Shown: positions 4,419-28,449, counted from the stretch's first letter. The stretch is DNA of 64,000 nt from an uncultured Bacteroidales bacterium (GCA_963714825.1 CAVQQF010000009.1:3198-67197); one strand, 5' to 3'. Notes: generated by a model from the sequence alone, not told the origin. Numbers and translations: made by a program.

Positions 4419-4455
4419 CTATATAGACACTTGAAAACGGGTTTACCCCTACAAG
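4419..4455 (-). promoter_or_regulatory. Conserved 37-nt upstream motif, copy A (candidate alternative-sigma promoter or operator)
   Basis: Plus strand ctatatagacacttgaaaacgggtttacccctacaag, 235 nt 5' of the paralog-3 ATG (4183). It shares an identical 18-nt core TATATAGACACTTGAAAA with copies at 13042, 25081 and 28413. Confidence 0.45.
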
Positions 4456-4734
4456 GGGAAAAAATAAATATTGAGATAGTAGATATATTGCATAAACTCA
4501 AAAACACAATAGGCAAGGACTTTGGGGAATTGGGGGTTATAATCTGAATTATTGAATAGAAGAACATTATGGGAGGTCGGAGTCGGGAGTCGGGAGGGAG
4601 TCGGGAATCGGAAGTAACCCAATATGCAGCCATTAACTTATTCCCTTACAACTTTAATCTTTGATTCCGATCGGGAACAATTTTTGAATTTTGAATTTTG
4701 CTCCCGCTAATTATCGGGATTGCCCTTTGAATTT

Positions 4735-4904
4735 CCTTTACCAGGGAGGATATTTTCATTTTGCACTTTGCATTTTTAGTTTACAAGTTACCCCCGCCCC
4801 CCGGAGGGGCCAAACGTAGACGAGTTATGACCTTTAACCTTCGGCCTTCGAATGCTAAGCGTAGGTTGCTGAGCGTAGCCGAAGTAAGCCGAAGCATGAC
4901 CTTT
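4735..4904. repeat. Composite spacer block (hairpin cccccggaggggg, gctgagcgtaggtt and cgaagnaagn words), copy 1 of 2
   Basis: Collinear with 13901..14105. Shared string ..ggaggatattttcattttgcac..tttacaagttacccccgccccccggagg..ccaaacgtagacgagttatgacctttaaccttcggccttcgaatgct.agcgtaggttgctgagcg..gaagcatgaccttt. The 14-mer has about 1.5 copies here versus about 4.6 in the other block. Confidence 0.85.
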
Positions 4905-5104
4905 GCTCTTTGACTTTTGACCTTTGAATTTCCTTTACCACGGAGGCACGGATAACACAGAGCACAGAGATATTGGTAGGATCGGATCACATTCACTGTT
5001 CACAATTCACTATTCCGTCCGTCGTCAGGCAAAACTTTTTCTTTGACCTTTTCACTTTCTTGCCTGCTGCGCAGAAGCAGGACCTTTGACTTTTGACTTT
5101 TCCC

Positions 5105-5136
5105 AAACAAAAAGGCCCCCTCACGGGAGCCTTTTT
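5105..5136 (-). terminator. Rho-independent terminator downstream of gene copy 5175..12688
   Basis: On the minus strand: GGCTCCC-gtga-GGGGGCC (7-bp stem with one G-U pair) followed by TTTTTGTTT. An A-run lies on the other side. The same structure follows the intact paralog at 14106..14139. Confidence 0.8.
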
Positions 5137-5174
5137 CACATTTTCCAATTAAGGATTATTTGCTTACAACGAAC

Positions 5175-8100
5175 TTACGGCTGAAGATTTGCATTTGTGG
5201 TGGTGAATTTCACGCTATAAGCACCGGCTGCGTAGTTAGAAGTGTTGAGCGTAATGGTGGTTTCACCCTTAACGGTCTTCTCTGCTACTACTGATCCCAG
5301 TGAATTGTATACCATAATGCTGCTTACTGCTTTGGTAAGATCAATTCTTACATAAGTGGTGGCAGGGTTAGGATATACTTTTACTTCGTTGGTTTCGCTT
5401 GGGTTAACACCTACGAAAATACAATCCCAGTCAATGTTCGACGGCATCGATTCGCCTTCAGTATAAACAGCGGTTACCTGGTATTCGTAACAGTTGGTTA
5501 CTAAGTTCGAAAGATTCATGTCGAGGTACTCGGTTTGTGTTACAGTAGCAATTTTAACCCAGGTTGGGGTTGCGGTGCTGGTACCTGCCGGGAATACAGC
5601 ATATGCATTGCGGTATACATTGAAACCGGTTAATGCGTCGCTGTTATCGCCAAGGATGGTAGCATTTGCAACTTCGCTGCCTGTGTTGTTATTCAACGGT
5701 TTGGCCGATAATGTACCTGCCAATGGTGATGAATAACTGCTGCTGCTGGTCGAAGGTTGGAAGGTTACCTGTGTCTTGCTGTCGCCAACAAGGCCGGTAG
5801 CGCGGATAAAGGTTACACTTGGAGCAAATCCGAAGCTGCTGAGTTTATCCCATCCTGATCCGTCGTAATACCACTCAAGGTCTAAGGCTGCATTCGGGCC
5901 ATTCTCGTCAAGATTGAGAACATCCGATTGCGTAGCTACAACCATGTGTAACATCACGTAGAAAGTTCCATCGAAAGCTACATCAGGTAAGGCTACGTTA
6001 GTCCACTCACCGAAGGTCGGGGTGAAGGTTGCGGAGCTTCCTACCAGGTTTTTGCCTGAATCGAAGATATCGAATGAATAGGTTGCTGAACCATTAGCAT
6101 CCATAAATACTGAAGCGGATTGTAATACACCGGCATCGGTAATCGGGAACTCGTTTCCTAACCAGCCTTCGCCAGCTGCATTGAAGTAAACTCCGTTTTC
6201 AGCTGTGTTGTCATCGAGGATGTACGACATAATTGTTCCACCACCTTCAGGTGCACTCCAGGTCAACTTAATGTCGTTCTGTGGTGTACCTTCGCGGGTA
6301 GCTACAAGGTTCAACGGTGGCATAAATTCGTATCCAACATAGATATGAATATTGTCAACTGCCCAGTAATAAATATCACCAGTCAGAGCGCCATTGGCAT
6401 TGAAACGTACTTTAAACACCTTGTTCTTAGCCTGGTTGCTAATGTTGATATGTTCTGATGTCCAGTCGAAATCACCATTGTTGGCATATTCCTTAACTGT
6501 AACCCAGCTTGAGCCGTTCCATACTTCTACTGTGAGCATTTCCATAGTTGAAGCAGTACGATCGTCAAGTTTCAGATCAAAGTCCATCCATATCTTATAA
6601 GGAGTGGTAGTGTTTACGGTGGTAGCATTCAGGTAGAAACTCTCCAGTGAACTCGAATAATCGGTCATCAGAGGATCCCATTTGAATTTAGCTGATGGTA
6701 ATGCATTACCAGCCTGGCCGTCCATAACCCAGTTCTGACCAACAGTCCACATGTTTACGTCGAATTGTCCGGTGGTCCAGTCTTCCATAAACGGAAGGTT
6801 GAAGCCGAAGAATACATCAACACATGCAGTTCCTTCTTTAATTGATTCGCCGGTTGTGCCAGGGAATCCATAAGGAGTAAGGTCATATACTGCGGTGATA
6901 TCGTAGCAATAAGCAGCTGGCATAAGATCCAGATCCCAGTATTCGGTCTCTGTTTTTGGTATGTTGGCTACTACTGCATCGTCGCGGTAGAGGTTATAGC
7001 TAACGAGGTTACCTGCTGGGCCTCCGCCACCTGGATCTGCGCTCATGTCATATTCAAACACATGATCTTGCTGAACAAGGCCTAACATTACATAGTGTCC
7101 GCTTACAAGTAAATTGGTATAAGCCAATCCACCAGCGATGCCACCAGCAAATAAGGTAAGGTCGGTTGATGCATCATGCATATCACCTGTAGCTGTAAGG
7201 GTTGTTCCGTCAATAGCAACAAGGTCAACACCATTGCCACCCTGATCGAACATCCAGAGGATATTGCCAATAGGATCATAACCTGAACCGTAGCATCCTG
7301 TTAATCCGAATCCGGCTGCACTGGCTATCAGTGAACCATCCATCTTGATGCTTCTCAGACTGGCCCATTCGCCTACATAGAATCCACCATTACCACCATC
7401 GAGGTTTTTGTTGTAACTGATGTGACGGATAGTAGTACCAGGAGCACTAACTGATCCGATCAGAACCTTATTGGTGAAATCCATTTCGTACAACGTAGTG
7501 CTGTTGTTCGAACCATAGAAATGATGATTTACAGTATTGTATGCAAGGTCGCGGATACTGTTAACACCAGCAATGCTGAAGTCTTCGATAAAGTTACCTG
7601 CAAGGTCGAATTTGGTGAATCCACCGCCGCTCCAGATGGTTGAATAAATAAATGAACCATCGGTTTCAATACCGGCGTGACCGGCTGTTGGCATAGCAAA
7701 CTCCAGAAGAATATCCCACATAGCAGCAGCAGCATCGCCACCGGTGTATTGGGTTACCATTGGGCTGTACTCAGCAGTTGCGATAGGCATTTCGGTACGA
7801 ACAATCGATCCGGTTGCAGCATAATCGCCACTCAAAGGAGGTTCCCATGTAAGGATAGCAGCACCCGAAGTAGTTGAAATATTTGCAACAGCTTCGAGGT
7901 TACGTGGAGGATAGAGGAAACAACTGGTGAAAGTATAGGTTTCCAGTTCGGAGTAACCTGAACAATACAATCCGGCTACACCTGCTACGTAAGTTTGTCC
8001 GTAGTTGATAGTACTTGGGTTAAATGTCCAGGTAAGATCAGGAGTCTGACCAACTTCAGTTCCATCGAGGAATACGCCGTAACCTTGTACAGGTACGCCG

Positions 8101-11100
8101 CCCGAAGCAAGCATTACATCATCGATAGCCCAGCCTGATGCCCATTGTGCAGCATCGTCAGCGTGGAATGCAAACCATACCGAACCAAGACCTGCTGCAC
8201 CTGAATAAGCTGCCAGATCAATATCTATCTGCTGCCAGGTAGCTGCCGGTGTACATGTGTAGATCGGTGTCCAGCTTGCGCCGGCATCGGTACTCATTTC
8301 AACGAAAGCCATCTGGCCAAAGTCGCCGTTGTAGAAGCTCTGGAAGCTGAGTACATAGCTTGGTAAAGCTGTAAGATCCAGTTCAGGAGTGATCAGGTAA
8401 TCGCAACATCCGTTGTTGGCCGATCCACCTTCGTCATCATTAGCTACAGCATAGGTAGTATGACCAGGAATAGCAAAGTATGCGCTTCCACCATCGGTGG
8501 TGCCATACCAGCCTACTGAACCCTGGGTTAATGCCTGCCAGCCAGCTGGAGGGAATACACCACCTTCGAAGTTTTCCATTACGGCTATTGCCAATGGCTC
8601 TTCCCAGGTAGCTACAAGAGTTCCGCATTCAACCATCAGGTTGCGTGGTTTGTAACGCAGGTCATCAAGAATAGCATCAATGGTCTTGTTTGCATTAATG
8701 GTTACTTCAACACTGTACGTATAATAACCGGCCTTAACAATCTCGAGCAGGTATTTTCCTTTAATTACGTTATCAAAGAATACAGTACCTGAAGCAGGAA
8801 CAGTAGCAGTGAGAACATCGAAAGGATAATCCTGGCCAATAAGAGTTACAGTTGCTCCTTCGGCAGGAACAAAACCGCAAACCAGTTGTACGTTAACAGT
8901 TACATCAGCAAACATTTTGTGTGGTACATTATTAGTATACACATAAGGTGATTGCTGTGCGTTAGGATAAGTTGCTTTTACACCGTAAGCATACCAGCCC
9001 TGAGCCAATCCTGACCAGGTTGATCCACCTTCGGTATAGGTAGTAGCAGTGATATCATTGCTGATGGTGGTGAATACACCGGCTGCAGGAGCAACAGGAG
9101 TTACAGCACCTAAGAAAATACGTGCAAGGTGATATTTGCTAACCATATCGCTGTTATCGTATCCTTCGGGAGCAGTTACCATGGCGCTCATTCCGGTTTG
9201 TCCGGCTACAGCCATTGGTTTACTGCTGCCGAAATCATACCGGCTACTTTACCAGGTATTGCCTGAGCAACTACCATAGCATCATCGTCGCCGCTCATCG
9301 GGCCACTTACGATAGCATGCATCATAAAGTCCTGGTATGGGCTTAATACCCATGGACTGTTGGTGCTTACGTTACGCGAATAGCTCTTATAAGCTTTAGG
9401 TTGTGATTCGTCAACACCGATTGGTGCGCAGTTAGGTGACATTGTTCCCTGTACCATTACGATAAAGAAATCGCCACTTGTAATATTAGCATTCAGGCCG
9501 GTTACATTAACCCAACCGAAGTTGGTTACTGATGCACCTACTGAATCGATCATAGTACCAGGCATGCCGTTAGCGTCGGTATTGAAAACCTTAACAGCAA
9601 ATTCAGCACCGTTGATTACGCCACCGGCTGGGAAACTACCGTCGCCAACAAAAAGTTTAGCGCCGACAACCTTTGCAGGATAGCCTTTAGGGGTGAATTT
9701 AACAGCATTCATGTTACCCGGAACCTGCCATGCAGCAAAGTTCTCAGCAGTACCGTCGTCGTACAGTAATTCGTATGGACCCGAAGGTACACACCATGTA
9801 ACAACACACTCGGTATCGGTAGCATTTACTGCTGCCGATGCACACGAAGGAGCATAAAGTTCTTCGCACATCATTGCATTTACGGTTGTGGTATTGCCTG
9901 CAGTTACTATTGAGTTGGCAACGGTTACAGTCTGATAGCCTGCCCTGGTAAATACGAGATCGTAAGTACCTGCATCAGCCATAAAGCTGTATTCGCCGTT
10001 ATCGTCGGTCATTGCCATAAAAGTACCGGCATTAACCATAACACCTGGTAATACATCACCGCTTACACAATCAGTTACAACACCCGATAACATACCAGGA
10101 ACAGTTACTGTCATAGTACAAGGAATGTTTACTGCGGCGTTGGCCAGGTCGTTGCTGTTCAGGGCTAGCTGGTTTACATATACACCTGCTGGTGCATAGT
10201 CGCCGATAGCTGAGAAAGTTGGTTTTACCTTAACAGTAGCACCGGCAGCAACAAAACCGCTGGCTGGAACAACTGCTGTAATAAAGGTCGGAGCCTTGAT
10301 GTTTACAGAGTAATCTTCGACCTCACCCCAGGTTTGTGAACCACATGGGTTGGCAGCTGTGCTGTACGACATACGCACACGCATGGTAGTTACACCCGAC
10401 ATAGCTCCGGCAGGAACAGCAATGTTGCCTGCAAAGTTGGAACCGCCACCAAGGGTAGCAAGCTGGGTAAGTTCGCTGGCTTCGAAGGTATCGTTGTGAT
10501 TGTAGTCAATCCAAACATATACATAATCGGTGCTGTAAGCATTTCCTCCGTTGAGTGCAGTCATAGGATAAGTTACACCTTTTACAAGATCAGTCGATAT
10601 TGCAGTGTAGTTTCCATAATTGGTACATCCCGAAGTATTATTGATAGTTCCGAGATTTACATTACCAATATACTCATCACAAGCGGTTGATGTAGCTGTA
10701 CAATATGCCAGCGGGCTGTCGCCTGAATTATCAACATAGTCAGGGAATTCATAAGCAAGAGTTCCGAGGCCTGTGTTATTGATATCGAGGGTTACCTGTT
10801 TGCTGGTACCTGTCCATACGGTAGCTGCAAGAGCTGCTGGCGACCAGGTCATGGTTGGGTTTGGCCATTCAACAACTACACATGCAGGAGCAGTAGCACC
10901 GGCTGTATAAACAGCATCTACACAATAGTCATATGTTCCAAAAGTAGGAAGCATATCGTTATATGTAGTGGCTGTAGGAACAATAGCAATCTGTGTTCCG
11001 TTACGTTTTACGGTATAATAAAGGAATCCTGTGCCAGGGGTGCATTCCCATGTGAGGTTAACTGCACCTGTCATCTGGTTGGTAAGGGTTCCGTCAAGGT

Positions 11101-12688
11101 TGGTAACAGGTACAAGAGCTTCACCGGCTACAACCATATTTACAGGAGCAACTATGGTTCCAACGTTAGGACTTGAAACAAAAGTAACTGTTGCCGAAAG
11201 CAAAGTACCTGAAGCAAGACCTGAAGCATTGAAATTAGCTGCTACCGAAGCATTGGTTGATGAAGCAACGGTGCCGGTAAGCACTGGCATGCTGAACCAT
11301 GAATGGTTACTGCTGCCGTAAGCTATAGTAGCAGTCCATGTAAGTGGTCCGCAACCAGGGTTGGTAACTGTAAACGCATTGTTAATAAATGCATTCGGGT
11401 TCAGCGATACGTTGTTCGGGTTAGGAAGAACAGTCATACCTGGTTGTGTGAGTGTAACATTCTGTGCAGTTACAGCACTTGGAAGAACAATAACACCAGG
11501 AACAGTAACAGTATTGTAACCTACCTTTTGAGCAGCTAAAGTATAAGTAGCAGCAGGAATATTTACAAACTGGTATTTACCATCCACAGCAGTTGTTGTG
11601 GTATAAGTAGCAGGCCCTGTAACAGCAACAGTGGCTCCCTCAACGGGAACACCGTAACAGTTCAGAACAAAGCCTTCCATAGTACCAAAACCGGCTAAGG
11701 TTGTAAACGACCATACAGGTGCTGATGCGGGTTGACCACCACCGTTAAAAGGAATGATGCTCCAATAATAAGTAGTATTGAAAACCATATCCGGATTCGG
11801 GTCGTAGGTAGGTGAATTAACAGTAACACCGTTGGCAATGTTGGTAGGAGGATTGTCGGTACCAAAATAAACCAGGTATCCGGCAGGAGCTCCACCGGTT
11901 GCACCGGCTGTCCAGTTAAGTGTTGAAGTAGTAAGAATACCGGTTCCACCGTTAGCAGGTGAACCAATAACTGCGACCGAAGGAGGAATCAGCGTATAAC
12001 TGTATGTTAAACCTGAAGCAGGAAAAACAGTTGATGTTAAGGTCATAGTAGCAGTGTTAGAAGTACCTGCTGTACTGGCTGACCAGTCGGTGGTAGTAGT
12101 GCGGTTAAAATAATCGGTATTGGTAGCACCTCTTAAACCCAGCTGTGGATGAACAGGTGAAGCATAAGCCGTTCCGACGCATGTACCGAAAACAAACTCA
12201 ATTTTGTTTGTGGTTTCGTACAGTTTAATCTGGAAGTTTAGGCTTTCGTCAGCATAGCTTGTGCCATACCGTTTTGCATTTATCCAGTTAATGGTAAATA
12301 CGCGGTAAGGAGCTGCACCCGTGGTTTCGTAGCGGATTTCGCTGCCTGCCTGGCCTTGTAAGTCGCGTCCCATAATTGAGATTGCGAAAGGGGTAGCAGT
12401 AGTCGACGAAATCGGGGCATAGCCCATAGATCCTGTCGTAAGTCGACAGGTATCCATTGCAACTTGCCCTCAACGTATTGACGGCGTTGTACCGTTGGCT
12501 GTGAAATCAAAGCCAAGTGGAACATCAGCAGTTGCATCGTCCCAAGTGCCTGTTTGCCAAAGCGTACCGCCTGTAACAGCAGTATAGGTTCCGGCATTGG
12601 AAGCAAATGTGTAGGATGAGGCAACTTGACCGTACGAGTTCCATGCTGCGAATACGAGCAGGAACATTACAGTAAGGAATTTTCTCAT
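5175..12688 (-). pseudogene. Disrupted copy of the 2511-aa giant T9SS surface protein, in three collinear ORF pieces
   Basis: Pieces 12470..12688 (72 aa, signal peptide MRKFLTVMFLLVFAAWNSYGQ), 9206..12457 (1083 aa) and 5175..9215 (1346 aa) align end to end with 14159..21694. Lesions: an in-frame TGA at 12470-12472; a 2-nt surplus near 9216-9230 (..AGMISAAVNQWL* versus ..AGMISQSKPMAVAG); and a 2-nt deficit near 5190-5205 that truncates the sorting domain (..KFTTTNANLQP* versus ..KFTTASGETFSRKFVVSK*). Confidence 0.85.
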
Positions 12689-13041
12689 TGTTTTTGTTTT
12701 AGTTAATAATTAATTGATTAAAAATGATTAATTTAATAATGGCGGGCAACTACCCGCACTTTCTTTGGAATTCTTTTCTCAGGTTTTCTCTTTCTGTCCT
12801 TTTTTTTAAGAATTAGTTAATAATTTGGTTTTTCCACTTATAATTTGGGAGAGTAAGTGCAAAAAAAAGTATTCAGATGTACGTTAATTTGGGTATTCAA
12901 AAAATTTTTATACGAAAAGGATCCATCCTTATCGTATAAAACAACGCAAACTACAATCGTATTGAACAGTATACCAAGCTCTTAGAGAATATACGAGTGA
13001 TTTATTAATCATTGGTACGCTACAAATATATTATTTATTAC

Positions 13042-13078
13042 CTATATAGACACTTGAAAACGGATTTACCCCTACAAG
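13042..13078 (-). promoter_or_regulatory. Conserved 37-nt upstream motif, copy B
   Basis: ctatatagacacttgaaaacggatttacccctacaag, 353 nt 5' of ATG 12688. It lies in a spacer that is partly duplicated with 4184..5174. Confidence 0.45.
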
Positions 13079-13386
13079 CATATTAAAAATATTTTACAAA
13101 GAATGCATTTTTAAGTGATTCACTGAGACACTTTTACTTCGCAAATGGATTTTTCGCGTATAAAGACGTTTGTTTGTGCTCCCAGATATTGCCTTTTTGT
13201 TAGTATGTATCTTTTCGTATTCTTATGCCTGAACATATGTTTAACAGGTAGTTTTAAAAGTACGAAATAAATCCTGAATTAAACAGAATTCTTCCATTTT
13301 GCAGGATTCATTCCAAATTCGAACAACAAACCAACAGAACAAATGAAAAAAAGTTTTAGTTCGGTATTTATCATTTAATTATGGCT

Positions 13387-13408: not shown

Positions 13409-13473
13409 GGATGTGGGAGGTGGGAGGTAGGAGGTGAGATGTTAAATTTTTCACTTTAACTTTTGAATTTTGA

Positions 13474-13491
13474 TCCCGATAGCTATCGGGA
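13474..13491. repeat. Palindromic element core TCCCGATAGCTATCGGGA
   Basis: Perfect 18-nt palindrome flanked by (ttgaatt)n words. Confidence 0.85.
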
Positions 13492-13510
13492 TTGAATTTT
13501 GAATTTTGAA

Positions 13511-13642
13511 TTTCATTTACCACGGAGGCACGGAGAACACAGAGAACCACAGAGGTTATTTTCTGCTCAATTTTCTCTTTTCACTATTTTTATTTCATTT
13601 ACCACGGAGGCACGGAGAACACAGAGAACCACGGAGGTTATT
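13511..13642. repeat. Two direct copies of a 50-nt module (13511..13560 and 13593..13642)
   Basis: tttcatttaccacggaggcacggagaacacagagaaccac(a/g)gaggttatt occurs twice, 82 nt apart. Related partial copies are at 4935..4975 and 13901..13916. Confidence 0.85.
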
Positions 13643-13761
13643 TGCTTATCGCTTTGAGGTAATATTTGCGTTTTTATGTCTACTAATGGCCTTTTCCTGA
13701 TAGAAATCGGAACCCAAGGGGCTTAACGTGGACGAGCTTATCATCCCTCTGCCATTCGAAT

Positions 13762-13813
13762 GCTGAGCGTAGGTTGCTGAGCGTAGGTTGCTGAGCGTAG
13801 GTTGCTGAGCGTC
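13762..13813. repeat. 14-nt minisatellite (gctgagcgtaggtt), about 3.7 units
   Basis: Read directly as head-to-tail units with no spacers. Confidence 0.9.
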
Positions 13814-13819
13814 AGGTAT

Positions 13820-20100: not shown

Positions 20101-21694
20101 CAAGGTTGGTAACAGGTACAAGAGCTGCACCGGCTACAACCATATTTACAGGAACAACAAGGGTTCCAACGTCAGGACTTGAAACAAAAGTAACAGTTGC
20201 TGAAAGCAAAGTTCCTGAAGCAAGACCTGAAGCATTGAAATTAGCCGCAACCGATGCATTGGTTGATGAAGCAACAGTGCCGGTAAGTGTTGGCATGCTG
20301 AACCATGAAGTGTTAGTACTTCCGTAAGCTATAGTAGCAGTCCATGTAAGTGGTCCGCAACCAGGGTTGGTAACTGCAAACGCATTATTAACAAATGCGT
20401 TAGGGTTAACCGTAACGTTGTTAGGGTTAGGAAGAACAGTCATACCCGGCTGGGTAATAGTAATATTCTGAGCGGTTACAGCAAGTGCAGCAATAACAAC
20501 ACCTGGAAGTGAAACCGTGTTATATCCAGCTTTTTGAGCAGCCAGTGTATAAGTTCCGGAAGGAATATTTACAAACTGGTATTTGCCATCAATTGCACTG
20601 GTAGTAGTGTAGGTACCCGGGCCTGTAACAGCAACGGTAGCTCCTTGTACAGGAACACCATAGCAGTTAAGCACAAAGCCTTCGAGTGTACCATTACCAG
20701 CATATGTGGTAAATGAATAGGTAGGAACACCGGTAGCATCACCTAATGAGTTAAAAGGAACAATTTGCCAATTATAAACAGTAGATAATCCAAGAGCCGG
20801 AGCAGGAGTATAGTTAGTAGTAGTTACAACAGTTCCGTTAACCAGGTTTGTAGGAGGGTTATCGGTTCCGAGGAATACTTTATAACCTTGAACCAAACCA
20901 CCTGTTGTAGGGGCTGTCCAAATCAATTGTGTAGTGTTAAGAACATCTACAGCACCATTAGCTGGTGTAGTCATAGCTGCTACTCCAGGTACAAATACCG
21001 GAGGAGTGATTTCGTATACAAATTTCAATCCCGTTGGAGGAACTGTAGTTGCATTCAAAGTCATAGTAGCACCATTTGTAAGACCTGCAGTTGATGCAGT
21101 CCAGGTTGAGGCGGTAGTGCGGTTAAAGAAATCAGCACTGCTGGCGCCGCGTAATCCCACCTGAGGGGTGTAAGATGAAGTGTTGTTAGTAAAACTTCCA
21201 TAAACAATCTCAACTTTATTTGATGTTTCATAAAGTTTGATCTGGAAGTTGTAGTTACAACCGGTAGCGCCATAAGGCCTGAAATCGGACCACTGAACCG
21301 TTAATACACGGTTAGGTGCGGTACCTGAAGTTGTGTAGCTAATCGAGCCACCTGTATTGCCCTGTAAGTCGCGACCAAGCGCCGAAATAACATTATTGGA
21401 AGCTCCACTGCTAATCGGGGTATAACTACTCGAAATAGTAGCACCCATAGCAATAAAACCGTTTGCATTCAAACTGAAAGCGGTATAATCAGTACCGTCG
21501 TAGTTGAACGTAAACCCAATAGGGTTGTTCGGATAGCTGGTGTCGTCAGTAGTACCAGTAGCAAGAACAGTTCCTCCTGTAACAGGAGAATAACCAACAG
21601 TAGCCTGCGACCACTGAAAGCCTGAACTTACAGCACTAAAGGCACTGCCGGCAAAGAAAGCAAGAAGCACAAGTAATGTAAGAAATTTTCTCAT
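14159..21694 (-). CDS. Giant (2511 aa) multi-domain T9SS-secreted surface or adhesin-like protein
   Basis: Uninterrupted 7.5-kb ORF. Signal peptide MRKFLTLLVLLAFFAGSAFSA. Fn3-like and carboxypeptidase-regulatory-like blocks (GTLEGFVLNCYGVPVQGATVAV..). GEVED-type block (..GSQTYGEVEDYSVNI). Two MAM/choice-of-anchor-J-like jelly-roll blocks (ENFEGGVFPPAGWQ..WAIDDVVL and LPFMEDWTTGQFD..WAVDNIHIY). C-terminal T9SS sorting domain (VKVYPNPATTYVRIDL..GAYSVKFTT..KFVVSK). Confidence 0.9.
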   Translation of the reverse strand: MRKFLTLLVLLAFFAGSAFSAVSSGFQWSQATVGYSPVTGGTVLATGTTDDTSYPNNPIGFTFNYDGTDYTAFSLNANGFIAMGATISSSYTPISSGASNNVISALGRDLQGNTGGSISYTTSGTAPNRVLTVQWSDFRPYGATGCNYNFQIKLYETSNKVEIVYGSFTNNTSSYTPQVGLRGASSADFFNRTTASTWTASTAGLTNGATMTLNATTVPPTGLKFVYEITPPVFVPGVAAMTTPANGAVDVLNTTQLIWTAPTTGGLVQGYKVFLGTDNPPTNLVNGTVVTTTNYTPAPALGLSTVYNWQIVPFNSLGDATGVPTYSFTTYAGNGTLEGFVLNCYGVPVQGATVAVTGPGTYTTTSAIDGKYQFVNIPSGTYTLAAQKAGYNTVSLPGVVIAALAVTAQNITITQPGMTVLPNPNNVTVNPNAFVNNAFAVTNPGCGPLTWTATIAYGSTNTSWFSMPTLTGTVASSTNASVAANFNASGLASGTLLSATVTFVSSPDVGTLVVPVNMVVAGAALVPVTNLDGTLTNQMTGAVNLTWECTPGTGFLYYTVKRNGTQIAIVPSATTYNDMLPAFGTYDYCVDAVYTAGATAPACVVVEWPNPTMTWSPAALAATVWTGTSEQVTLDINNTGLGTLAYEFPDYVDNSGDSPLAYCTATSTACDEYIGNVKLGTINNTSGCTNYGNYTAISTDLVKGVTYPMTALNGGNAYSSDYVYVWIDYNHNDTFEASELTQLATLGGGSNFAGDIAVPAGAMSGITTMRVRMSYATSSGNPCGSQTYGEVEDYSVNIKAPTFITAVVPASGFVAAGSTVKVKPTFSAIGDYAPAGVYVNQLALNSNDMANTAVNIPCTMTVTIPGIISGVVTDCVSGDVLPGVMVNATTFSAMTDDNGEYSFMADAGTYDLVFTRAGFQTVTVAGSVVTAGNTTTVNAMMCEELYAPSCASAAVNATDTECVVTWCVPTGPYELLYDDGTAENFAAWQVPGNMNAVKFTPKGYPATVVGAKLFVGDGSFPAGGVINGAEFAVKVFNTDANGMPGTMIDSVGASVTNFGWVNVTGLNANITSGDFFIVMVQGTMSPNCAPIGVDESQPKAYKSYSRNVSTNSPWVLSPYQDFMMHAIVSGPMSGDDDAMVVAQAIPGKVAGMISQSKPMAVAGQTGMSAMVTAPEGYDNSDMVSKYHLARIFLGAVTPVAPAAGVFTTISNDITATTYTEGGSTWSGLAQGWYAYGVKATYPNAQQSPYVYTNNVPHKMFADVTINVQLVCGFVPAEGATVTLTGLDYPYDVLTATVPASGTVLFDNVIKGKYVMEIVKAGYYTYTVEVTINANKTINAILDDIRYKPRNLMVECGTLVATWEEPLAIAVMENFEGGVFPPAGWQATTQGSVGWYGTTDGGSAYFAIPGHTTYAVANDDEGGSANNGCCDYLITPELDLTGLPSFVLSFQSFYNGDFGQMAFVEMSTDAGASWTPIYTCTPAATWQQVDIDLAAYSGAAGLGSVWFAFHADDAAQWASGWAIDDVVLASGGVPVQGYGVFLDGTEVGQTPDLTWTFNPSTINYGQTYVAGVAGLYCSGYSELETYTFTSCFLYPPRNLEAVANISTTSGAAILTWEPPLSGDYAATGSIVRTEMPIATAEYSPMVTQYTGGDAAAAMWDILLEFAMPTAGHAGIETDGSFIYSTIWSGGGFTKFDLAGNFIEDFSIAGVNSIRDLAYNTVNHHFYGSNNSTTLYEMDFTNKVLIGSVSAPGTTIRHISYNKNLDGGNGGFYVGEWASLRSIKMDGSLIASAAGFGLTGCYGSGYDPIGNILWMFDQGGNGVDLVAIDGTTLTATGDMHDASTDLTLFAGGIAGGLAYTNLLVSGHYVMLGLVQQDHVFEYDMSADPGGGGPAGNLVSYNLYRDDAVVANIPKTETEYWDLDLMPAAYCYDITAVYDLTPYGFPGTTGESIKEGTACVDVFFGFNLPFMEDWTTGQFDVNMWTVGQNWVMDGQAGNALPSAKFKWDPLMTDYSSSLESFYLNATNVNTTTPYKIWMDFDLKLDDRTASTMEMLTVEVWNGSSWVTVKEYANNGDFDWTSEHINISNQAKNKVFKVRFNANGALTGDIFYWAVDNIHIYVGYEFMPPLNLVATREGTPQNDIKLTWSAPEGGGSIMSYILDDNTAENGVYFNAAGEGWLGNEFPITDAGVLQSASVFMDANGSATYSFDIFDSGKNLVGSSATFTPTFGEWTNVALPDVAFDGTFYVMLHMVVATQSDILNLDEDGPNAALDLEWYYDGSGWDKLSSFGFAPSVTFIRATGLVGDSKTQVTFQPSTSSSSYSSPLAGTLSAKPLNNNTGSEVANATILGDNSDALTGFNVYRNAYAVFPAGTSTATPTWVKIATVTQTEYLDMNLSNLVTNCYEYQVTAVYTEGESMPSNIDWDCIFVGVNPSETNEVKVYPNPATTYVRIDLTKAVSSIMVYNSLGSVVAEKTVKGETTITLNTSNYAAGAYSVKFTTASGETFSRKFVVSK

Positions 21695-22012
21695 TTTGTG
21701 TTTTTGATTTTTGTTAATAATTAATTGAATTGTGATTGGGTATTAATTGTAATTAAGAGAGTCAGCTTGTAGTGTTGTAAAATATACAGTATACATTTTT
21801 AAAAACTTACATGCCGTTAGTAACTTGACAAAAAATACGTTTGCTAAACTATATTTTGAGCAAACTGATAATGTGTAATTTAAGATACTTTACTGTTTTT
21901 TAGAGGTCTCCTTTCCTTTTCATTATATATCTTTACGGTTTTTTGATTGCCGGCAAAGATATAATTAAATTTATATTCCGTGGATTATTTTTAGATTAAG
22001 TTAGTGTTTACA

Positions 22013-25000
22013 TTAGTATTTTATGATTTTCGTTTGGGAAAAGCAATCTCCGTTTGTACAAATCTGAACAAAATAGATACCTGCATGCAATTCGCTAATA
22101 TCCAGAGTTTTAACTTCGCCATTATAACTTTCGGTATAAAAGTTTTGAATTATACCTTGAGCATTTATCAATTGTATTAAATAATTCGCATTTTCAGTTA
22201 ATCCGCTGAAATACAAACGATCGCTGGCAGGATTAGGGAAAACTGTGATGGAAGCAGGTCCTGTTTCATTACTTGAGGAATTAGCCATATTAAATTTATA
22301 CCCGGCAGCTGAGCATACCAATTCGACATTTTCGATTTTTGGCTGCGATGGCGACACCACAATAAGATCGGAATGGAAAGGTAGAGTTCCTGCTTTTTCG
22401 CCGGATAATACATATTCGCCAAAGGGCAGGTTTCTGAACCTGAAATCACTGCCATCGCGAACTACTGCCCAGCCAAGTATGTTTTTCATCAGTTTATCGT
22501 AGAGCAAAACGGTAACATCGTTGCATCGTTCGGAACTACCAGCCATAGTTGAACAATACCCTAAAACAGACCCTTCACCTTCCGGAAGCTGAACCGTGAT
22601 CCTGGCCAGGTCAATGTCGACATCGTAGGTATTGTCGGTGAGTTCAATTTTATGCGCATTTCCCCAACGGATATCATTAAAGAAATAAGTAGGAATATAT
22701 GCCGGGTTATTTACCTTGTCGGGGATTACATATAAATAATAGGTACCGGCGAACAATGCTTTAATTTCGAAACTTCCGTCGGTGCTCAAGTGACCCGATC
22801 GGACAGGCTTAATACTCGTACCGTTCGTGCTGTAAACCGACAAATTGCTGTTGTCTGCCAGGATTTCGCCAGCATGAATGCGGCCTGAGATGGAATAACC
22901 CGGGTCAATTTTAAGGAAGAGCTGATCGGAAACCGAGCCACATTCCGAAAAACCGGTGAAAGTGAGGATAACATTCCCGTTGGCAATATCGCCGGGACCG
23001 GGTTGGTAAGCAGGATTTAAGAGTGTATCCGAAGTAAAGGTTCCGTCACCGGCCGAGTTCCATTTCAGGTAATCGTAGCCAGTAGCATTGGCATTATCCA
23101 GCCTCAGCACTGAATCAATACTTATTATGGTATCGTTACCTGCAAAAACAAGGGGTGCATCCTGAAATGTAATTCTGGCAACATCTTTATACTGTAGCTC
23201 TGAATTCTGAGCTTCCAGGAAAAGATTAACATAACCGTTGAAGTAATCCAATGGTCCGGGAGAGTATACCGGGTGAAGGATATGAGTATTATCGAAAGAA
23301 CCATCGCCCGATGTTGACCATGTCAGCACCTCAAAATCCACTGCTGTGGATTTGGCAATGGCATAAGCATTATTGTAACATATAGCAGTATCGGGACCTG
23401 CATAGGGAGCAGTAATGGCATAGGAATAATCACTTTCGTGGCCTTCGGTTTGATCGTATAAGCCGTTGGCCATAAAATCGAAAGCAGTAACAGCTATGGT
23501 ATCACCTATGGGGAAACTACCCATATTGACCGAAGTTTTCAACCCATTATTAAAGGTATGCGCGAAGGTGATTCCATCATTTGCTCCAAAATACACATTA
23601 TAACCCTCGAGGTCGGTGATAGCCCTGGCTTCCCAGCTTAAAACCACATCGGTGCCAACAAGCTGCTTTATTACCTTTGCGGGAGGAGGCACGGGTGCAA
23701 TCGATAAAATATTTTCAAGTATCGGCTTATACAACACTTCGCCAAGGCCCGAAGCATCGTACACATCAAAAATAATACTGTCGATCCCGCTAAATGATTT
23801 GGTACCCCAGTAATTATACTCTGCGTGTATTACCTTGTCCGAAAGATTTTTAAAAGAGCCTGAATCCCCGTTCTGCATGAGGTTGTTAAACTGAACCGGG
23901 CCTTGCGGAGCGCTTGAAATCCGGAACGAAAAAGTGGAATTAGTATAGGCTGTATTATAAAGGAATGAATTGAATACCGAGTTGCGTGTGCTGTCGGGCT
24001 GAACAGAAATTCCGCCGTTGTTAAATGTTATGCTGTTATAGGTAATATTGTTGTACGACGAGCCAGCTGCAAGAGTAACTGCCTGTATTAAACTTCGCGA
24101 AAACAGGTTCTGGGTAATGGTGTTATTATTCGATTGCCAGCAGATTATCGCGTTGCGGTTTTTCGAAAAATAATTATTCCGCAGTGTGGTCGAATGCTGG
24201 AAAAGCTTTACGGCTTCCTTATTCCCTATAAAATAATTACCGGAAACGGTATTGTAGCCCGGGCCATTGTTACCATAATTCCCTATATGAATACCAATGC
24301 TGCACGAATTGATCGTATTATCCCATATGCTGTTATAGCTTGATTCGCTGGCGTAGCTGTTAATAAAAATTCCGACATCAGAGCATTCGGCAATGGTATT
24401 GCTATAAATCTTGTTACCGGGGTTTTGAAAACCGGCAGCCAGGAATATGCCGAAATCGCACATGGTAAAATTACAATTCCTGATTACATTGTATGCTGAA
24501 TTATTGATGTTAATACCAAAGGAACAAAAGGCAATGCTCGAATTTTCGACCAGGAGCGAAGTATTATCGGCGAGTGTTACCGAATAGGTGGCATCGCTGA
24601 TACTCACATCCGATAGTACCGAACCCATAACATATGCACTGTCGGCGCCCAGCAGTGTTTTGGTACCATACAAAGTAATACCGTTCCATTGTCCGGGAAC
24701 AGATGTTTGATTACGCGAATAGAATCTGATTTTCTGAGCTTCTGTGCCTTTGGCTATTAAGGTGCCATAACTGATAAGGCTGGTGCCATACTCGAACTGC
24801 ATTTCGACGCCTGGAAGTATGGTGAGCTTAACATCCCTGCCAACAGTAAGGTCCTGTATGACTATATAAGGATTGTTTTCGGGTGAGTAGGTTTCATCGC
24901 CGGTGAGCTCGCCACCCACATAAACCTGGCTTCGCGCAGGAATAGTGAACCAAAGCAACACAACAATAAGTACGACACCTGTATTAAATACGGTGTTAAA

Positions 25001-25024
25001 TGAAAACTTACTCACTCTCTCCAT
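22013..25024 (-). CDS. Secreted right-handed beta-helix repeat protein with a T9SS C-terminal sorting domain (1003 aa)
   Basis: N-terminal hydrophobic signal or anchor. Repetitive beta-helix signature (..NCNFTMCDFGIFL.., ..NTINSCSIGIHIGN.., ..ITQNLFSRS..). Two AGxD..W.S.GDG.F repeats. C-terminus ITVFPNPASDRLYF..LHAGIYFVQI..KIIKY. Confidence 0.8.
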   Translation of the reverse strand: MERVSKFSFNTVFNTGVVLIVVLLWFTIPARSQVYVGGELTGDETYSPENNPYIVIQDLTVGRDVKLTILPGVEMQFEYGTSLISYGTLIAKGTEAQKIRFYSRNQTSVPGQWNGITLYGTKTLLGADSAYVMGSVLSDVSISDATYSVTLADNTSLLVENSSIAFCSFGININNSAYNVIRNCNFTMCDFGIFLAAGFQNPGNKIYSNTIAECSDVGIFINSYASESSYNSIWDNTINSCSIGIHIGNYGNNGPGYNTVSGNYFIGNKEAVKLFQHSTTLRNNYFSKNRNAIICWQSNNNTITQNLFSRSLIQAVTLAAGSSYNNITYNSITFNNGGISVQPDSTRNSVFNSFLYNTAYTNSTFSFRISSAPQGPVQFNNLMQNGDSGSFKNLSDKVIHAEYNYWGTKSFSGIDSIIFDVYDASGLGEVLYKPILENILSIAPVPPPAKVIKQLVGTDVVLSWEARAITDLEGYNVYFGANDGITFAHTFNNGLKTSVNMGSFPIGDTIAVTAFDFMANGLYDQTEGHESDYSYAITAPYAGPDTAICYNNAYAIAKSTAVDFEVLTWSTSGDGSFDNTHILHPVYSPGPLDYFNGYVNLFLEAQNSELQYKDVARITFQDAPLVFAGNDTIISIDSVLRLDNANATGYDYLKWNSAGDGTFTSDTLLNPAYQPGPGDIANGNVILTFTGFSECGSVSDQLFLKIDPGYSISGRIHAGEILADNSNLSVYSTNGTSIKPVRSGHLSTDGSFEIKALFAGTYYLYVIPDKVNNPAYIPTYFFNDIRWGNAHKIELTDNTYDVDIDLARITVQLPEGEGSVLGYCSTMAGSSERCNDVTVLLYDKLMKNILGWAVVRDGSDFRFRNLPFGEYVLSGEKAGTLPFHSDLIVVSPSQPKIENVELVCSAAGYKFNMANSSSNETGPASITVFPNPASDRLYFSGLTENANYLIQLINAQGIIQNFYTESYNGEVKTLDISELHAGIYFVQICTNGDCFSQTKIIKY

Positions 25025-25080
25025 TTTAATCCATAGTTACCAAATAGGCGGCAAATACGTCGGGTACAACAATTCTGGTA

Positions 25081-25117
25081 GTATATAGACACTTGAAAAA
25101 CGTTTTACCCCTACACG
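25081..25117 (-). promoter_or_regulatory. Conserved 37-nt upstream motif, copy C
   Basis: gtatatagacacttgaaaaacgttttacccctacacg, 56 nt 5' of ATG 25024. Its context is not duplicated. Confidence 0.5.
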
Positions 25118-25326
25118 TGTTTTGAAAATAATTTCAACTTTTTTACAACTATCATAAACATAAGCACATAAAGTTAAAAATATTTTTTATTAATTAAGCT
25201 GTCTGAATGCCTAAGCTACTTTTAAACGGACTTATGCAGGAATTATTATCACAAAGGTACCTGATTTAAGGGTATCATTTCGAAGCTGTGGATGATTAAG
25301 AGTCTGTTTAAAATTATATTTTTTTA

Positions 25327-25547
25327 CATTGTTGTCCGGTTAAATTTGATTAAAAACGCTGTAAAGCTTGTGATATCTCGTCCGCCTCGGGCGGACTTTA
25401 ATGCTGAGGGGGTTACTTTTTATTCTACCAATATTACGTCCGCCTCAGGCGGACTGTCCCGTAGGGACAAGATATTGGTAGAAAGCAAATTACAGATGCG
25501 TTAAAAGTCCCGTAGGGACGATATAGGATTTTACCCGGACAACAATG
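25327..25547. repeat. Nested-hairpin element bounded by 13-bp inverted repeats (MITE-like or structured RNA)
   Basis: cattgttgtccgg (25327-25339) pairs with ccggacaacaatg (25535-25547). Inside are gtccgcctc.ggcggac twice, gtcccgtagggac twice, and a ctaccaatat/atattggtag stem enclosing two of the hairpins. Confidence 0.6.
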
Positions 25548-25641
25548 ATTTTTTTAATTCTTAATGAGTGAGGGGTGACAAAGCGAGGGATGAAAGGCGA
25601 AAATATCTTAGGAAATTTGATTTTAAATTGATGATTCTTGC

Positions 25642-25663
25642 GTCCCGATAGCTTTCGGGATCC
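25642..25663. repeat. Palindromic element copy (gtcccgatagctttcgggatcc)
   Basis: Same family as 13474, 31768, 31838, 31883 and 50839. Confidence 0.75.
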
Positions 25664-26015
25664 GGACTCCAGCCTTCTGACCTTTTCTTGCTTAACTAAG
25701 GGGATTTAGTAAATTTAAACTGTGACTTATACTTCAGTAGCCTGCATCGAATTTGCGACCTTCAGAACCTGATTCTGTCACCTGGCATACCTGGGAAATG
25801 CATGCAAAAAGAAACTGTCAGAATTTAATTTATGTTTTTATTTGATAACAATGCGTACTCTCAATATTCGCGGAATATCTCCACTCATTTACAATTTACG
25901 AACCAACGGGAATCATTGTTTGAATATATAATAAATCGCCAATCCTTAGATGATAATTTGGTGAATTGACAGCTTCGAAATTAAATATACAGTGTTTTAG
26001 TGAAATTTATCAGGC

Positions 26016-27362
26016 TTAAAACTTCACATAAGCCGCCAGTTTAAATCCCAGCAATCCATAGCGCTTTTCGATCGGGAGGTCACTATAAAGCGAATTTGTT
26101 TGTTTGCGGTAGGTAGCTTCGGCTATAACACCTGAGCGCCCCGAAAATTTAATGGCTGTGCCCATACCCGCATGCCACGAAAAAAGAACGGGGTTCAGAT
26201 CGTTCTGGCTTGTAAGTATCACATTATTCTTATCAGCCGGGTCAATATGAATGGCATCGACCGAAACCAGGAAAGCAGCGTTTACCCCGCCCATGGCGTA
26301 AATTTCAGCTTTGGAATTTTGCCAGACCCTGAATTTAAGGGATAAGGGCACATCGATATAACGGTACAGATTATCATTGCGGTACGAATAGTTCTTTGCG
26401 TCCTTTTCAATCCAGCTCGAATCGGTTACATAAAACCAGGCGGTATCGACCCCGTTCAGGGTATAATAAGTCTCGACGGTATCGGTGCGGAAAAAACCAC
26501 CGCTTGCAATGGTATAGGCATATTCGAACTTCTCGCCCAGGCTCATAAAGCCAAAACCTGACCTGACACCGAATTTATGATAATCGTACCCTGCAATAAT
26601 TCCGGCCGAGAACTTGTTCAATTCTCCTGTTTTTGATTGCTTCATCAAATCAGCGTATTCTCCGGCTGATGATTGGGTGCTCGTTACAGTTGCTGAACCT
26701 GGAAGCATTTCGAAATACAGCCCGGTATAAAAACCGTTATATTCGAGGTATTTGAGGTGTTTAACCGCTTTTTCGTCAGCATCGTCGACTTTAGTTATAT
26801 TGGGTTTCGGAGACTGCATATTTTTTTCGACAAACACCGTATCGGTAATACGTATGGTATCAAAATGAGTGATGGAAACGGAACGGAATATGGTATCGGT
26901 GCGGTTTATTATGAGTGTATCGATGCGATACGAATACACCGTATCCGGTTTTTTGCCCTGTGGTATTACCAGCTGGGGTTTCCCCGGGATAAGCTTTTGG
27001 TTGGGTGCAAGAGTGATTACTTCGGGGTCGCCCCGGTAAATCACCACCTGGTTTCCGATTTCGCGGAAGGCTATGGTAGGGTCAGCGAACAATTGCGTAA
27101 GCACTTCGTGCAGCGGAAGGTTATTAAACCGCATATTTACATTGCGGCCGGGTTGTATCAAATCGGGATTATACGAAAACCTGACCCCGGTTTTGTTGCC
27201 TAACGACTGCAACACGGTAGCCATCGACATATTGGAAAATGTGAAGGATACTTTTTTATCGAGAAAGGGTTGTTGTGATTGAGCTGATGCAGGCTGCTGC
27301 AATAAGCAGAAGGATATGACGAAAACAAATACAAAAACAGGATTTCTGCTTGTGCCTGACAT
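26016..27362 (-). CDS. STN-domain protein fused to a small outer-membrane beta-barrel (448 aa)
   Basis: Signal peptide ending ..QQPASAQ. STN-like block (MATVLQSLGNKTGVRFSYNPDLIQPGRNVNMRFNNLPLHEVLTQLF..NQVVIY). The C-terminal half has alternating beta-strand patterns and ends ..GFKLAAYVKF (terminal aromatic, typical of OMPs). It starts 13 nt downstream of the FecR gene. Confidence 0.65.
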   Translation of the reverse strand: MSGTSRNPVFVFVFVISFCLLQQPASAQSQQPFLDKKVSFTFSNMSMATVLQSLGNKTGVRFSYNPDLIQPGRNVNMRFNNLPLHEVLTQLFADPTIAFREIGNQVVIYRGDPEVITLAPNQKLIPGKPQLVIPQGKKPDTVYSYRIDTLIINRTDTIFRSVSITHFDTIRITDTVFVEKNMQSPKPNITKVDDADEKAVKHLKYLEYNGFYTGLYFEMLPGSATVTSTQSSAGEYADLMKQSKTGELNKFSAGIIAGYDYHKFGVRSGFGFMSLGEKFEYAYTIASGGFFRTDTVETYYTLNGVDTAWFYVTDSSWIEKDAKNYSYRNDNLYRYIDVPLSLKFRVWQNSKAEIYAMGGVNAAFLVSVDAIHIDPADKNNVILTSQNDLNPVLFSWHAGMGTAIKFSGRSGVIAEATYRKQTNSLYSDLPIEKRYGLLGFKLAAYVKF

Positions 27363-27375
27363 AGATGGATATTGA

Positions 27376-28395
27376 TTAACCTGTTACTTTTTTAACCAGG
27401 TAATCTTTTCCGTTATGAGTAAATTGAAGTTTGTGAACCAGGCTGAGCACTTCCAGCACCGAATCCAGGGATTCGTTATCGAAGGTAGCAGTCAGTTTCA
27501 GGTGGGAAAGTTCGGCATTATTCATGCGGAAATGAACATCATATTTTTTACCGACAACTTCCATAACTTTATCGAGTGTAGTTTCGTTAAAAACGAGCAT
27601 ACCTGTTTTCCAGCTGATAAAATTAGGATCATCATTCGGCATCATGGCGAGTGTATGTGTTTTTGTATTGTACACACCCTTATCGCCTTTCCGCAGCACT
27701 ATTTGCCCGCGAATGTTGTTGTTTTTGTCCACATGATAAAAAAGAACTGTCCCTGAGTTCACCACAACTTCGGTTAATCCGGTTATGGGATCGGCTTTCA
27801 CATTGAAGGCAGTTCCCAGTACTTTTATGCGTGCATCACCGGTTTCAATAACAAAAGGCCTGGTTGGGTCTGAAGCTATTTCAAAAAAAGCTTCACCCCA
27901 AAAGTAAACCTCTCTGCGATCACTACCAAATTTTTCGGGAAATTTAACTTGCGAGCTTAAATTTAATGTAATATTCGAGCCATCGGACAAAAGTACAGCC
28001 GACGAAGCATCCGGACCTGAGGCCACCGACTTCAGAGGTTTGTTTTGACCGGCTATGTAAAATACCGAAAAAGCAATCAGCAGCATGGCGGCAATACCAG
28101 CAGCATATTTAACAAAACGCATGGCCATTGGTTTTGGCTTCTGCGAATCGCGTACAACACTTAATGGATTTTCCTTAATATGTTTGCTTACAAGTAACCA
28201 TGCAGCATCCACATCGTAGGTATCGGAAACCGGCGAGAGAACAGGGGTAGCCCATATCTGCTTCATGGCATGATAGGTATTCCGGTAAACGCCATCGGAT
28301 TGAATCAAACCGGCAATAGCCTGCTGCTCCGACGGGGTGCATTCACCCGCCAGGTAACTGGTTATTTGTAATTCTATAGCCCGGTTGTTCAACAT
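27376..28395 (-). CDS. FecR-family anti-sigma factor (339 aa)
   Basis: N-terminal cytoplasmic region, one TM helix (AAGIAAMLLIAFSVFYIAG), FecR-type periplasmic block (..VLLSDGSNITLNLSSQVKF..GEAFFEI..RPFVIETGDARIKVLGTAFNV) and a C-terminal DUF4974-like tail. Confidence 0.85.
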   Translation of the reverse strand: MLNNRAIELQITSYLAGECTPSEQQAIAGLIQSDGVYRNTYHAMKQIWATPVLSPVSDTYDVDAAWLLVSKHIKENPLSVVRDSQKPKPMAMRFVKYAAGIAAMLLIAFSVFYIAGQNKPLKSVASGPDASSAVLLSDGSNITLNLSSQVKFPEKFGSDRREVYFWGEAFFEIASDPTRPFVIETGDARIKVLGTAFNVKADPITGLTEVVVNSGTVLFYHVDKNNNIRGQIVLRKGDKGVYNTKTHTLAMMPNDDPNFISWKTGMLVFNETTLDKVMEVVGKKYDVHFRMNNAELSHLKLTATFDNESLDSVLEVLSLVHKLQFTHNGKDYLVKKVTG

Positions 28396-28412
28396 TTCTT
28401 TATTATTTCACA

Positions 28413-28449
28413 CTATATAGACACTTGAAAACGGTTTTACCACTACAAG
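28413..28449 (-). promoter_or_regulatory. Conserved 37-nt upstream motif, copy D (in the sigma/anti-sigma spacer)
   Basis: ctatatagacacttgaaaacggttttaccactacaag, 17 nt 5' of the FecR ATG (28395). Confidence 0.5.

Follow-up and report, generated by a model that had tools for sequence, protein, structure and literature searches.

A bipartite intergenic element as a candidate ECF sigma promoter for fecR and type IX secretion cargo genes in an uncultured Bacteroidales bacterium

What is the role of a short DNA motif that recurs, always in the same orientation, in front of an anti-sigma gene and of genes for secreted surface proteins? The question is raised by a 64,000-nucleotide (nt) stretch of DNA from an uncultured Lentimicrobiaceae-like Bacteroidales bacterium (GCA_963714825.1 CAVQQF010000009.1:3198-67197), hereafter the window, in which a gene for a sigma factor of the extracytoplasmic function (ECF) type is followed by the gene for a FecR-type anti-sigma factor. 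An earlier interpretation made from the DNA alone (the sequence-only reading) described a 37-nt motif in four copies and proposed a dedicated promoter or operator tying this pair to secreted cargo. Bacteroidota carry dozens of FecI-like ECF sigma factors, whose promoters are for the most part unknown. As of 2021, none of the members of the ECF240 group had been studied experimentally (PMC7826278), and FecI-like sigmas are those for which motif prediction failed most often (PMC7776599). Our comparative analysis suggests that the motif is a promoter dependent on the adjacent TIGR02985-type ECF sigma, driving fecR together with a gene for an STN/small-barrel outer-membrane protein, as well as type IX secretion system (T9SS) cargo genes. 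We assign this explanation a probability of about 0.78.

Occurrence and conservation of the motif

The 18-mer core of the motif, TATATAGACACTTGAAAA, has exactly four exact matches in the whole window, all on the plus strand (4420, 13043, 25082, and 28414), compared with 0.07 expected from shuffled sequences. No further match appears in the window with up to three mismatches permitted. Every copy lies 5' of a minus-strand gene and on the strand of that gene, in agreement with the sequence-only reading. In gene sense, the four copies read cTTGTAGGGGTAAAAnCGTTTTCAAGTGTCTATATAG, with an A/T tract 5' of each. Copy 1 (28413..28449) is located in the 69-nt spacer between the sigma gene, whose stop codon occupies 28465-28467, and the FecR gene, 17 nt before the FecR ATG at 28395. 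Copy 2 (25081..25117) precedes the ATG of a beta-helix T9SS protein (25024) by 56 nt, copy 3 (13042..13078) lies 353 nt before ATG 12688, and copy 4 (4419..4455) lies 235 nt before ATG 4183. These distances, the spacer length, and the A/T tract upstream of all four copies had been given correctly before. None of the four copies has the sigma-A signature TTTG-N17-23-TAnnTTTG at or near it, again as claimed. The former description of copies 3 and 4 as preceding two giant paralogs holds in part: the gene starting at 12688 is giant but disrupted, whereas the gene starting at 4183 encodes 752 amino acids (aa) and is not giant.

The sequence-only reading had cautioned that copies 3 and 4 lie in partly duplicated spacers. 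This duplication concerns the distal parts of the spacers (4721-5156 resembling 13455-14159), whereas near the motif just 45 nt are common (4411-4455 resembling 13034-13078), so that the two copies are locally independent. The distal parts also share other short repeat families (ctccgtggtaaatgaaattcaaag, gcttcggcttacttcg, and tandem acgctcagcaacct), which are unrelated to the motif. Within the window, the gene at 45290-46681 on the plus strand carries a T9SS sorting domain and has no motif copy upstream; the motif is therefore not a general feature of T9SS genes and marks a subset of the cargo. In 21695-22012, before giant paralog 1, there is no copy, and this gene is probably transcribed from copy 2 together with the beta-helix gene.

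Outside the window, the exact 18-mer was searched in 185,579 species genomes (one genome per species, 596 gigabases), which yielded 32 loci. Fifteen of these also contain the unconstrained half TGTAGGGGTAAAA and the A/T tract, and all 15 belong to metagenome-assembled genomes of Bacteroidales/Lentimicrobiaceae. The other 17 have unrelated flanks and lack TGTAGGGGTAAAA, and their number is about that due to chance for an 18-mer. Each of the 15 true sites that has room is followed by a same-strand open reading frame (ORF) with a signal peptide. Two of them (L001 and L005) show the order sigma-motif-FecR-STN, and the others precede GEVED giants, proteins with a T9SS tail, or a DUF3575 protein. 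A metagenome scan anchored on the upstream half TGTAGGGGTAAANNNGTTTTC added about 35 true sites, in which the downstream half varies save for TGTC and an A/T-rich stretch. The same scan also returned about 20 loci (L036, L044, L047, L049, L050, L053, L054, L057, and about ten more) that share a different, highly conserved ggggcattttcttgcggctaagttttttcaTGTAGGGGTAAATGAGTTTTCcattgggatggg... sequence, which fits the search pattern and lacks both TGTC and the A/T tract. A literature search for the motif words found unrelated primers only.

Both scans held parts of the motif constant (TTTTCAAGTGTCTATATA in one, TGTAGGGGTAAA...GTTTTC in the other). Because of this ascertainment bias, the profile of the element was built from protein-guided loci (L090-L100), of which 11 were recovered by fetching sigma homologues. 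The identity of these homologues falls off gradually, from 78% to about 40%. The gene order sigma-FecR-STN/barrel-beta-helix-giant, beside rplU-rpmA-serS, is kept in loci whose sigma factors are as little as 44% identical; samples containing the locus include ERR12037370, SRR28229724, and SRR30230066. Wherever both intergenic regions of an orthologous locus can be read, the sigma-FecR spacer holds one copy and another lies 5' of the giant gene, except in L099 and the window, where this second copy is 5' of the beta-helix gene. A phmmer search across the fetched DNA as a whole gave 19 sigma homologues, with protein identities down to 44%, and in all 19 cases the sigma-FecR spacer that follows contains the motif. 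The motif is thus present at orthologous loci in related genomes, a comparison that the sequence-only reading had pointed to.

Variants of the motif change in concert within a genome. L096, L099, and L100, with sigma factors about 44-47% identical to that of the window, carry GAGTAGGGG...AACTGTCTTA at each of their two sites; in L095 both sites have TTGTC; and in window-like genomes the sequence is TTGTAGGGG...GTGTC. These lineages also differ in what is presumed to be the region 4.2 recognition helix of their sigma factor (TRSLEF vs TKALKY/AKALEQ). Such concerted variation would be expected of a cis element that tracks one trans factor, with only two or three independent events represented. 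Conservation, these concerted variants, and the absence of a copy at 45290-46681 together support the proposal of a dedicated signal tying the sigma/anti-sigma pair to secreted cargo.

L097, a paralogous sigma-FecR pair followed by other genes, shows CAGGGTAAAAC-N10-TGTCATAAT within its spacer, which suggests, from this one paralog, that a promoter between the sigma and anti-sigma genes may be a general design of this sigma clade. The motif-like site there (L097:10577-10617) ends 10 nt before the annotated FecR start, predicting a near-leaderless fecR mRNA. In L101 the annotated FecR start is even nearer to the motif and was probably mis-called.

A relaxed pattern applied to all fetched DNA gives 68 non-redundant sites, all intergenic; three were flagged inside ORFs and are apparent artefacts of spurious ORFs, one of which (L038) was checked directly. 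Every site with enough sequence has a co-oriented gene downstream. The targets are signal-peptide genes, mostly T9SS cargo, from at least eight unrelated gene families, and Por_Secre_tail is found in 7/9 further complete target ORFs. From the C of TGTC to the start codon, the distance is 23-38 nt for FecR, 31-103 nt for small secreted proteins, and about 240-435 nt for giants.

Two blocks at a fixed spacing

The profile comprises 21 sites not chosen by DNA pattern. Counting the T of TGTAG as position 1, high information is found at GTAGGGGTAAAA (positions 2-13) and at TGTC(T/A)TA (positions 25-31), with weak T-richness at positions 18-20 and an A/T tract about 8-20 nt upstream of the blocks. 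The gap between the two blocks is invariably 11 nt, and a search of the protein-guided loci with other gap lengths revealed no further real copy. The 68 sites of the fixed-gap pattern have GTAGGGGTAAAA-N11-TGTC in common. The continuous 37-nt motif described earlier is thus conserved as a sequence, whereas its functional core, according to the 21-site profile, consists of the two blocks; the seemingly unbroken conservation in the window and its close relatives arises from relatedness and ascertainment. TGTC does not vary in the 15 genome-scan sites or in the approximately 35 metagenome sites, where that half was unconstrained, and it is the same in every aligned site of the 68-site tally. Directly after the motif in L021 (7240-7306) and L070, the -10-like unit is repeated several times (TGTCTATATAatgtctatatttgtctacaaggtgtctatataatgtctac), forming a short array of GTCTATATA units.

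These features resemble those of known ECF promoters. GTC is the -10 consensus of Escherichia coli sigma-E (PMC6648896), sigma-E promoters are known to contain A/T-rich UP elements (PMC3326320), and a pyrimidine-purine step is expected at -1/+1, counted from the flipped-out C of the -10 element (PMC7776599). Such a step is found 9-10 nt past the C of TGTC in 63 of the 68 sites, compared with 5-20 of 68 at neighbouring offsets. With this C as the flipped-out base, transcription start sites are predicted for all four copies. In copy 1, block 1 (GTAGTGGTAAAA) spans 28435-28446 and TGTC 28420-28423; the predicted start at 28410/28411 would leave a leader of about 15 nt to the FecR ATG. Its A/T tract (AAAATATTTTTTTTT, 28450..28464) is UP-element-like and starts directly after the sigma stop codon. 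Copy 2 has block 1 at 25103-25114, TGTC at 25088-25091, and a predicted start at 25078/25079, with an A/T-rich tract (25121..25146) less regular than those at the other copies. The corresponding elements of copy 3 are 13064-13075 and 13049-13052, with a predicted start at 13039/13040, a leader of about 350 nt, and the A/T tract at 13081..13096. Those of copy 4 are 4441-4452 and 4426-4429, with a predicted start at 4416/4417, a leader of about 233 nt, and the tract at 4459..4472. Like the copies, the tracts are read on the minus strand.

Given the predicted start, block 1 spans -36 to -25 (centre about -30) and TGTC lies at about -11. The canonical -35 slot is occupied by GTAGGGGT, and an AAAA run lies just inside the spacer. 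Contact of sigma domain 4 (sigma-4) with GTAGGGGT would correspond to the canonical register and contact with GGGTAAAA to a short register. An unusual register with GGGTAAAAC as the -35 element is less likely, given its 10-nt spacing and variable C. GTAAAAC as a canonical -35 element was rejected, since its C is variable and only 10 nt separate it from TGTC. Of the two functions offered by the sequence-only reading, promoter and operator, the former is the better fit.

The predicted reader and its rivals

In the mechanism we propose, RNA polymerase carrying the ECF sigma factor (28465-29040) would read each motif copy, recognizing an A/T UP-like tract, GTAGGGGTAAAA near -30, an 11-nt gap, and the -10 element TGTC(T/A)TA, and would start transcription 9-10 nt past the C. 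FecR would keep the sigma factor at the inner membrane, and the STN/small-barrel protein in the outer membrane would relay a surface signal to FecR. Once freed, the sigma factor would transcribe fecR and the STN-barrel gene, which would amount to feedback on the sensor. It would also raise giant 2, the GEVED protein, and the beta-helix protein, the last probably together with giant 1.

Several observations weigh against this mechanism. The AAC core is not conserved at the canonical ECF -35 distance (16-18 nt from the -10 element), and AAAC is present only 10 nt from TGTC, where its C varies (t/g/a/c). The block, at 12 base pairs (bp), exceeds the usual sigma-4 footprint and could thus be bound by a second protein as well. 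The core in the L097 paralog is similar (CAGGGTAAAAC-N10-TGTC), so the site could be read by more than one sigma of the family. Many of the 68 sites are orthologous, and the counts therefore overstate the independent observations. Moreover, the sigma gene is preceded by a motif copy neither in the window nor at any orthologous locus; while most ECF sigmas autoregulate (PMC7826278), this one is thus not autoregulated through this site.

Some of these points would also suit a true transcription signal with another reader, which could be another alternative sigma, such as a T9SS-dedicated ECF factor like SigP of Porphyromonas, or an activator or repressor of fecR and the cargo genes. The upstream block exceeds the usual -35 length, the core recurs in similar form in the L097 paralog, and GTAAAAC..GTTTTC looks partly palindromic in close relatives. 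In addition, an unlinked ECF sigma is known to control T9SS genes in P. gingivalis, and the same has been suggested for F. psychrophilum (PMC4800418, PMC9723704). However, the palindrome is lost in distant orthologues (for example, GTAAAACAGCATTTAAC in L096), and the element lacks symmetry: its ECF-type TGTC stands at a constant distance and is followed by a start-like pyrimidine-purine step. A copy is found directly 3' of this sigma gene in all 19 cases, and the lineage variants track the divergence of the sigma protein. We therefore consider another reader unlikely. The symmetric operator was rejected as a candidate, its partial palindrome GTAAAAC/GTTTTC being gone in the distant orthologues.

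Readings that do not involve a dedicated transcription factor are less probable still. Copy 1 would be transcribed if sigma and fecR are co-transcribed, and the 5' regions of the giants are long, as would suit a leader, processing, or protein-binding site in 5' untranslated regions and in the sigma-fecR intercistronic RNA. Such an RNA-level element is nevertheless very improbable: the whole window gives no Rfam match at gathering score, RNAalifold on 24 sites finds neither base pairs nor covariation, start codons lie anywhere from about 10 to more than 400 nt away, and two blocks separated by a gap of variable sequence and fixed length, with an A/T tract, form a DNA-recognition pattern. The window spacers are crowded with other repeat families, and dCas12f-sigmaE systems of Bacteroidota target short sequences 5' of operons (PMC13472631), so the motif might be a repeat or mobile-element end, comparable to a miniature inverted-repeat transposable element, or an RNA-guided dCas12f-sigma target, its proximity to genes being incidental. 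However, an inverted-repeat search reveals no inverted partner around any copy, the flanks are dissimilar (about 45 nt common at copies 3 and 4), and genomes whose sigma factors are 44-78% identical have the motif at the same orthologous positions. The known dCas12f loci are characterized by an rpoE-dcas12f operon, a sigma factor with a C-terminal domain extension, and the lack of FecR (PMC13472631). In the window there is no Cas12f/TnpB-like gene, the sigma factor has a 17-aa tail in place of such a domain, and FecR is adjacent. Guided transcription by dCas12f was rejected since its defining features are absent, and we regard this group of explanations as extremely improbable.

Within the preferred explanation, a promoter read by the adjacent sigma factor, a more specific view can be formulated. 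The non-canonical geometry, with a 12-bp block at -30 and sigma-4 either in an unusual register or sharing the block with a second factor such as the N-terminal domain of FecR, could be combined with the promoter between the sigma and anti-sigma genes and with input from a non-transporting STN/OmpA-like barrel into a TonB-independent signalling pathway dedicated to giant T9SS proteins. This view is put forward tentatively, and we doubt that all of its parts hold.

Genes of the locus and relation to known systems

The genes under discussion are all encoded on the minus strand. The presumed reader is an ECF sigma factor of 191 aa (28465..29040), which matches TIGR02985 (Sig70_bacteroi1) with 150.4 bits (cutoff 126.4). 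Its C-terminus (28465-28520) forms a hydrophobic tail of about 17 residues, DFVAVMLLIMNMITKT, past region 4.2, which is unusual in a soluble sigma factor. The tail is conserved in most orthologues and is absent or shorter in P0071 and P0111. The FecR-type anti-sigma factor (27376..28395; PF04773 FecR and PF16344 FecR_C) is encoded by the first gene after copy 1.

The next gene (26016..27362) encodes the outer-membrane partner of 448 aa, composed of an STN-like N-terminal domain, a disordered DT-rich linker, and a small OmpA/OmpW-like beta-barrel. The STN match is weak and below threshold (23.6 bits vs a cutoff of 28.4). The protein shows no plug, no TonB_dep_Rec domain, no NCBIfam family, and no sequence relative in the PDB. 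Its AlphaFold model has a predicted local distance difference test score (pLDDT) of 77.6, and the best PDB folds for the barrel are OmpA, OmpW, and Ail/OmpX. As the barrel is small and lacks a plug, the protein is not a TonB-dependent transducer; it may be a non-transporting outer-membrane partner of FecR. The family of this STN protein is very small, with 69 clusters in 5.8 billion proteins.

The beta-helix protein (NosD/Beta_helix; 22013..25024), the target of copy 2, ends in a T9SS C-terminal sorting domain. The spacer between the STN and beta-helix genes (25024-26016) is 992 nt long, compared with about 25-460 nt in relatives. It contains several GC hairpins and an inverted repeat of 18 nt (25327-25344 / 25530-25547), and it looks as though an insertion had parted the beta-helix gene from the fecR operon. 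Giant paralog 1 (14159..21694, 2511 aa) contains GEVED, CarboxypepD_reg, and a T9SS C-terminal domain. Giant paralog 2 (5175..12688), the target of copy 3, carries two disruptions, a TGA in frame at codon 73 and a frameshift near 9215-9224. The C-terminal half of giant 2 is 98.5% identical to that of giant 1 and the N-terminal half 79%, a pattern that suggests recent gene conversion, or else a decaying copy or an assembly error. The target of copy 4 is the 752-aa GEVED/CarboxypepD_reg secreted protein (1925..4183).

The leaders of the giant genes are 230-430 nt long, and an AT-rich CAATTAATTATTAAC-like stretch recurs in them 15-40 nt before the start codon (12689-12764, 21695-21770, and the giant genes in L090, L092, L095, and L099); it may be a translation-initiation or regulatory feature. 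A hairpin followed by a T-run is found after the giant genes when the sequence is read directly. A scan for sigma-70-type promoters and terminators gave no excess over shuffled sequences; it is not relevant to Bacteroidota and overlooked this hairpin-plus-T-run.

An ECF promoter with its regulon is a well-known kind of element. The novelty here lies in the consensus, in its location between the genes for the sigma and anti-sigma factors, in a regulon of T9SS cargo, and in the unusual outer-membrane partner. The comparative data provide one FecI-like sigma of an uncultured Lentimicrobiaceae-like Bacteroidales lineage with a clean consensus, a defined regulon, and a predicted start, and they point to very large T9SS-secreted surface proteins, not a nutrient transporter, as its output. 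The candidate promoter/sigma pair might serve as an orthogonal expression part for Bacteroidota and as a basis for predicting when the giant surface proteins are produced.

Among known systems, the promoters of ECF group IV, such as those of E. coli sigma-E (GGAACTT-N16-GTC with an UP element), are likewise bipartite with fixed spacing and GTC in the -10 element. They also share an A/T tract at UP distance, a pyrimidine-purine step about 10 nt after the C of the -10 element, and a small envelope or surface regulon (PMC6648896, PMC3326320, PMC7776599). In contrast, the upstream block here is GTAGGGGTAAAA, 12 bp long and centred at about -30, with no conserved AAC at the canonical distance, and the sigma gene has no site. 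The proposed -30/-10 ECF element PM2 of B. thetaiotaomicron, likened to the present element by geometry alone, is also centred near -30 and -10, in place of -35/-10, and has TGT in its -10 part (PMC7366714, PMC12596196), whereas its genes are tied to oxidative stress and stationary phase and not to T9SS cargo.

A related signalling arrangement is FecI/FecR/FecA, with the Bacteroidota "expansion family 1" (TIGR02985, ECF240, formerly ECF10), whose sigma factors are paired with FecR and SusC-like transducers. The locus shares with it the sigma type, FecR/FecR_C, and an adjacent STN domain, and here too, as for fecIR, a promoter of the sigma factor's own type does not drive the sigma gene. Here, however, the partner is a 448-aa protein with STN and an OmpA/OmpW-like barrel instead of a TonB-dependent transducer of about 1000 aa with a plug, the predicted sigma-dependent promoter lies between the sigma and anti-sigma genes, and the regulon comprises T9SS cargo instead of transport or glycan-utilisation genes. 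PorXY-SigP of Porphyromonas gingivalis and the SM6 ECF-type promoters of F. psychrophilum likewise link an ECF sigma to type IX secretion (PMC4800418, PMC9723704); those systems govern the T9SS machinery through a two-component system or an unlinked sigma, whereas here cargo genes would respond to FecR/STN input. In Dma, a small outer-membrane beta-barrel is likewise coupled to an ECF anti-sigma pathway in Bacteroidota. There, the barrel and the anti-sigma domain form one polypeptide acting with an ECF21 sigma, whereas the present locus divides them between two proteins, FecR and the STN-barrel, and pairs them with a TIGR02985-type sigma.

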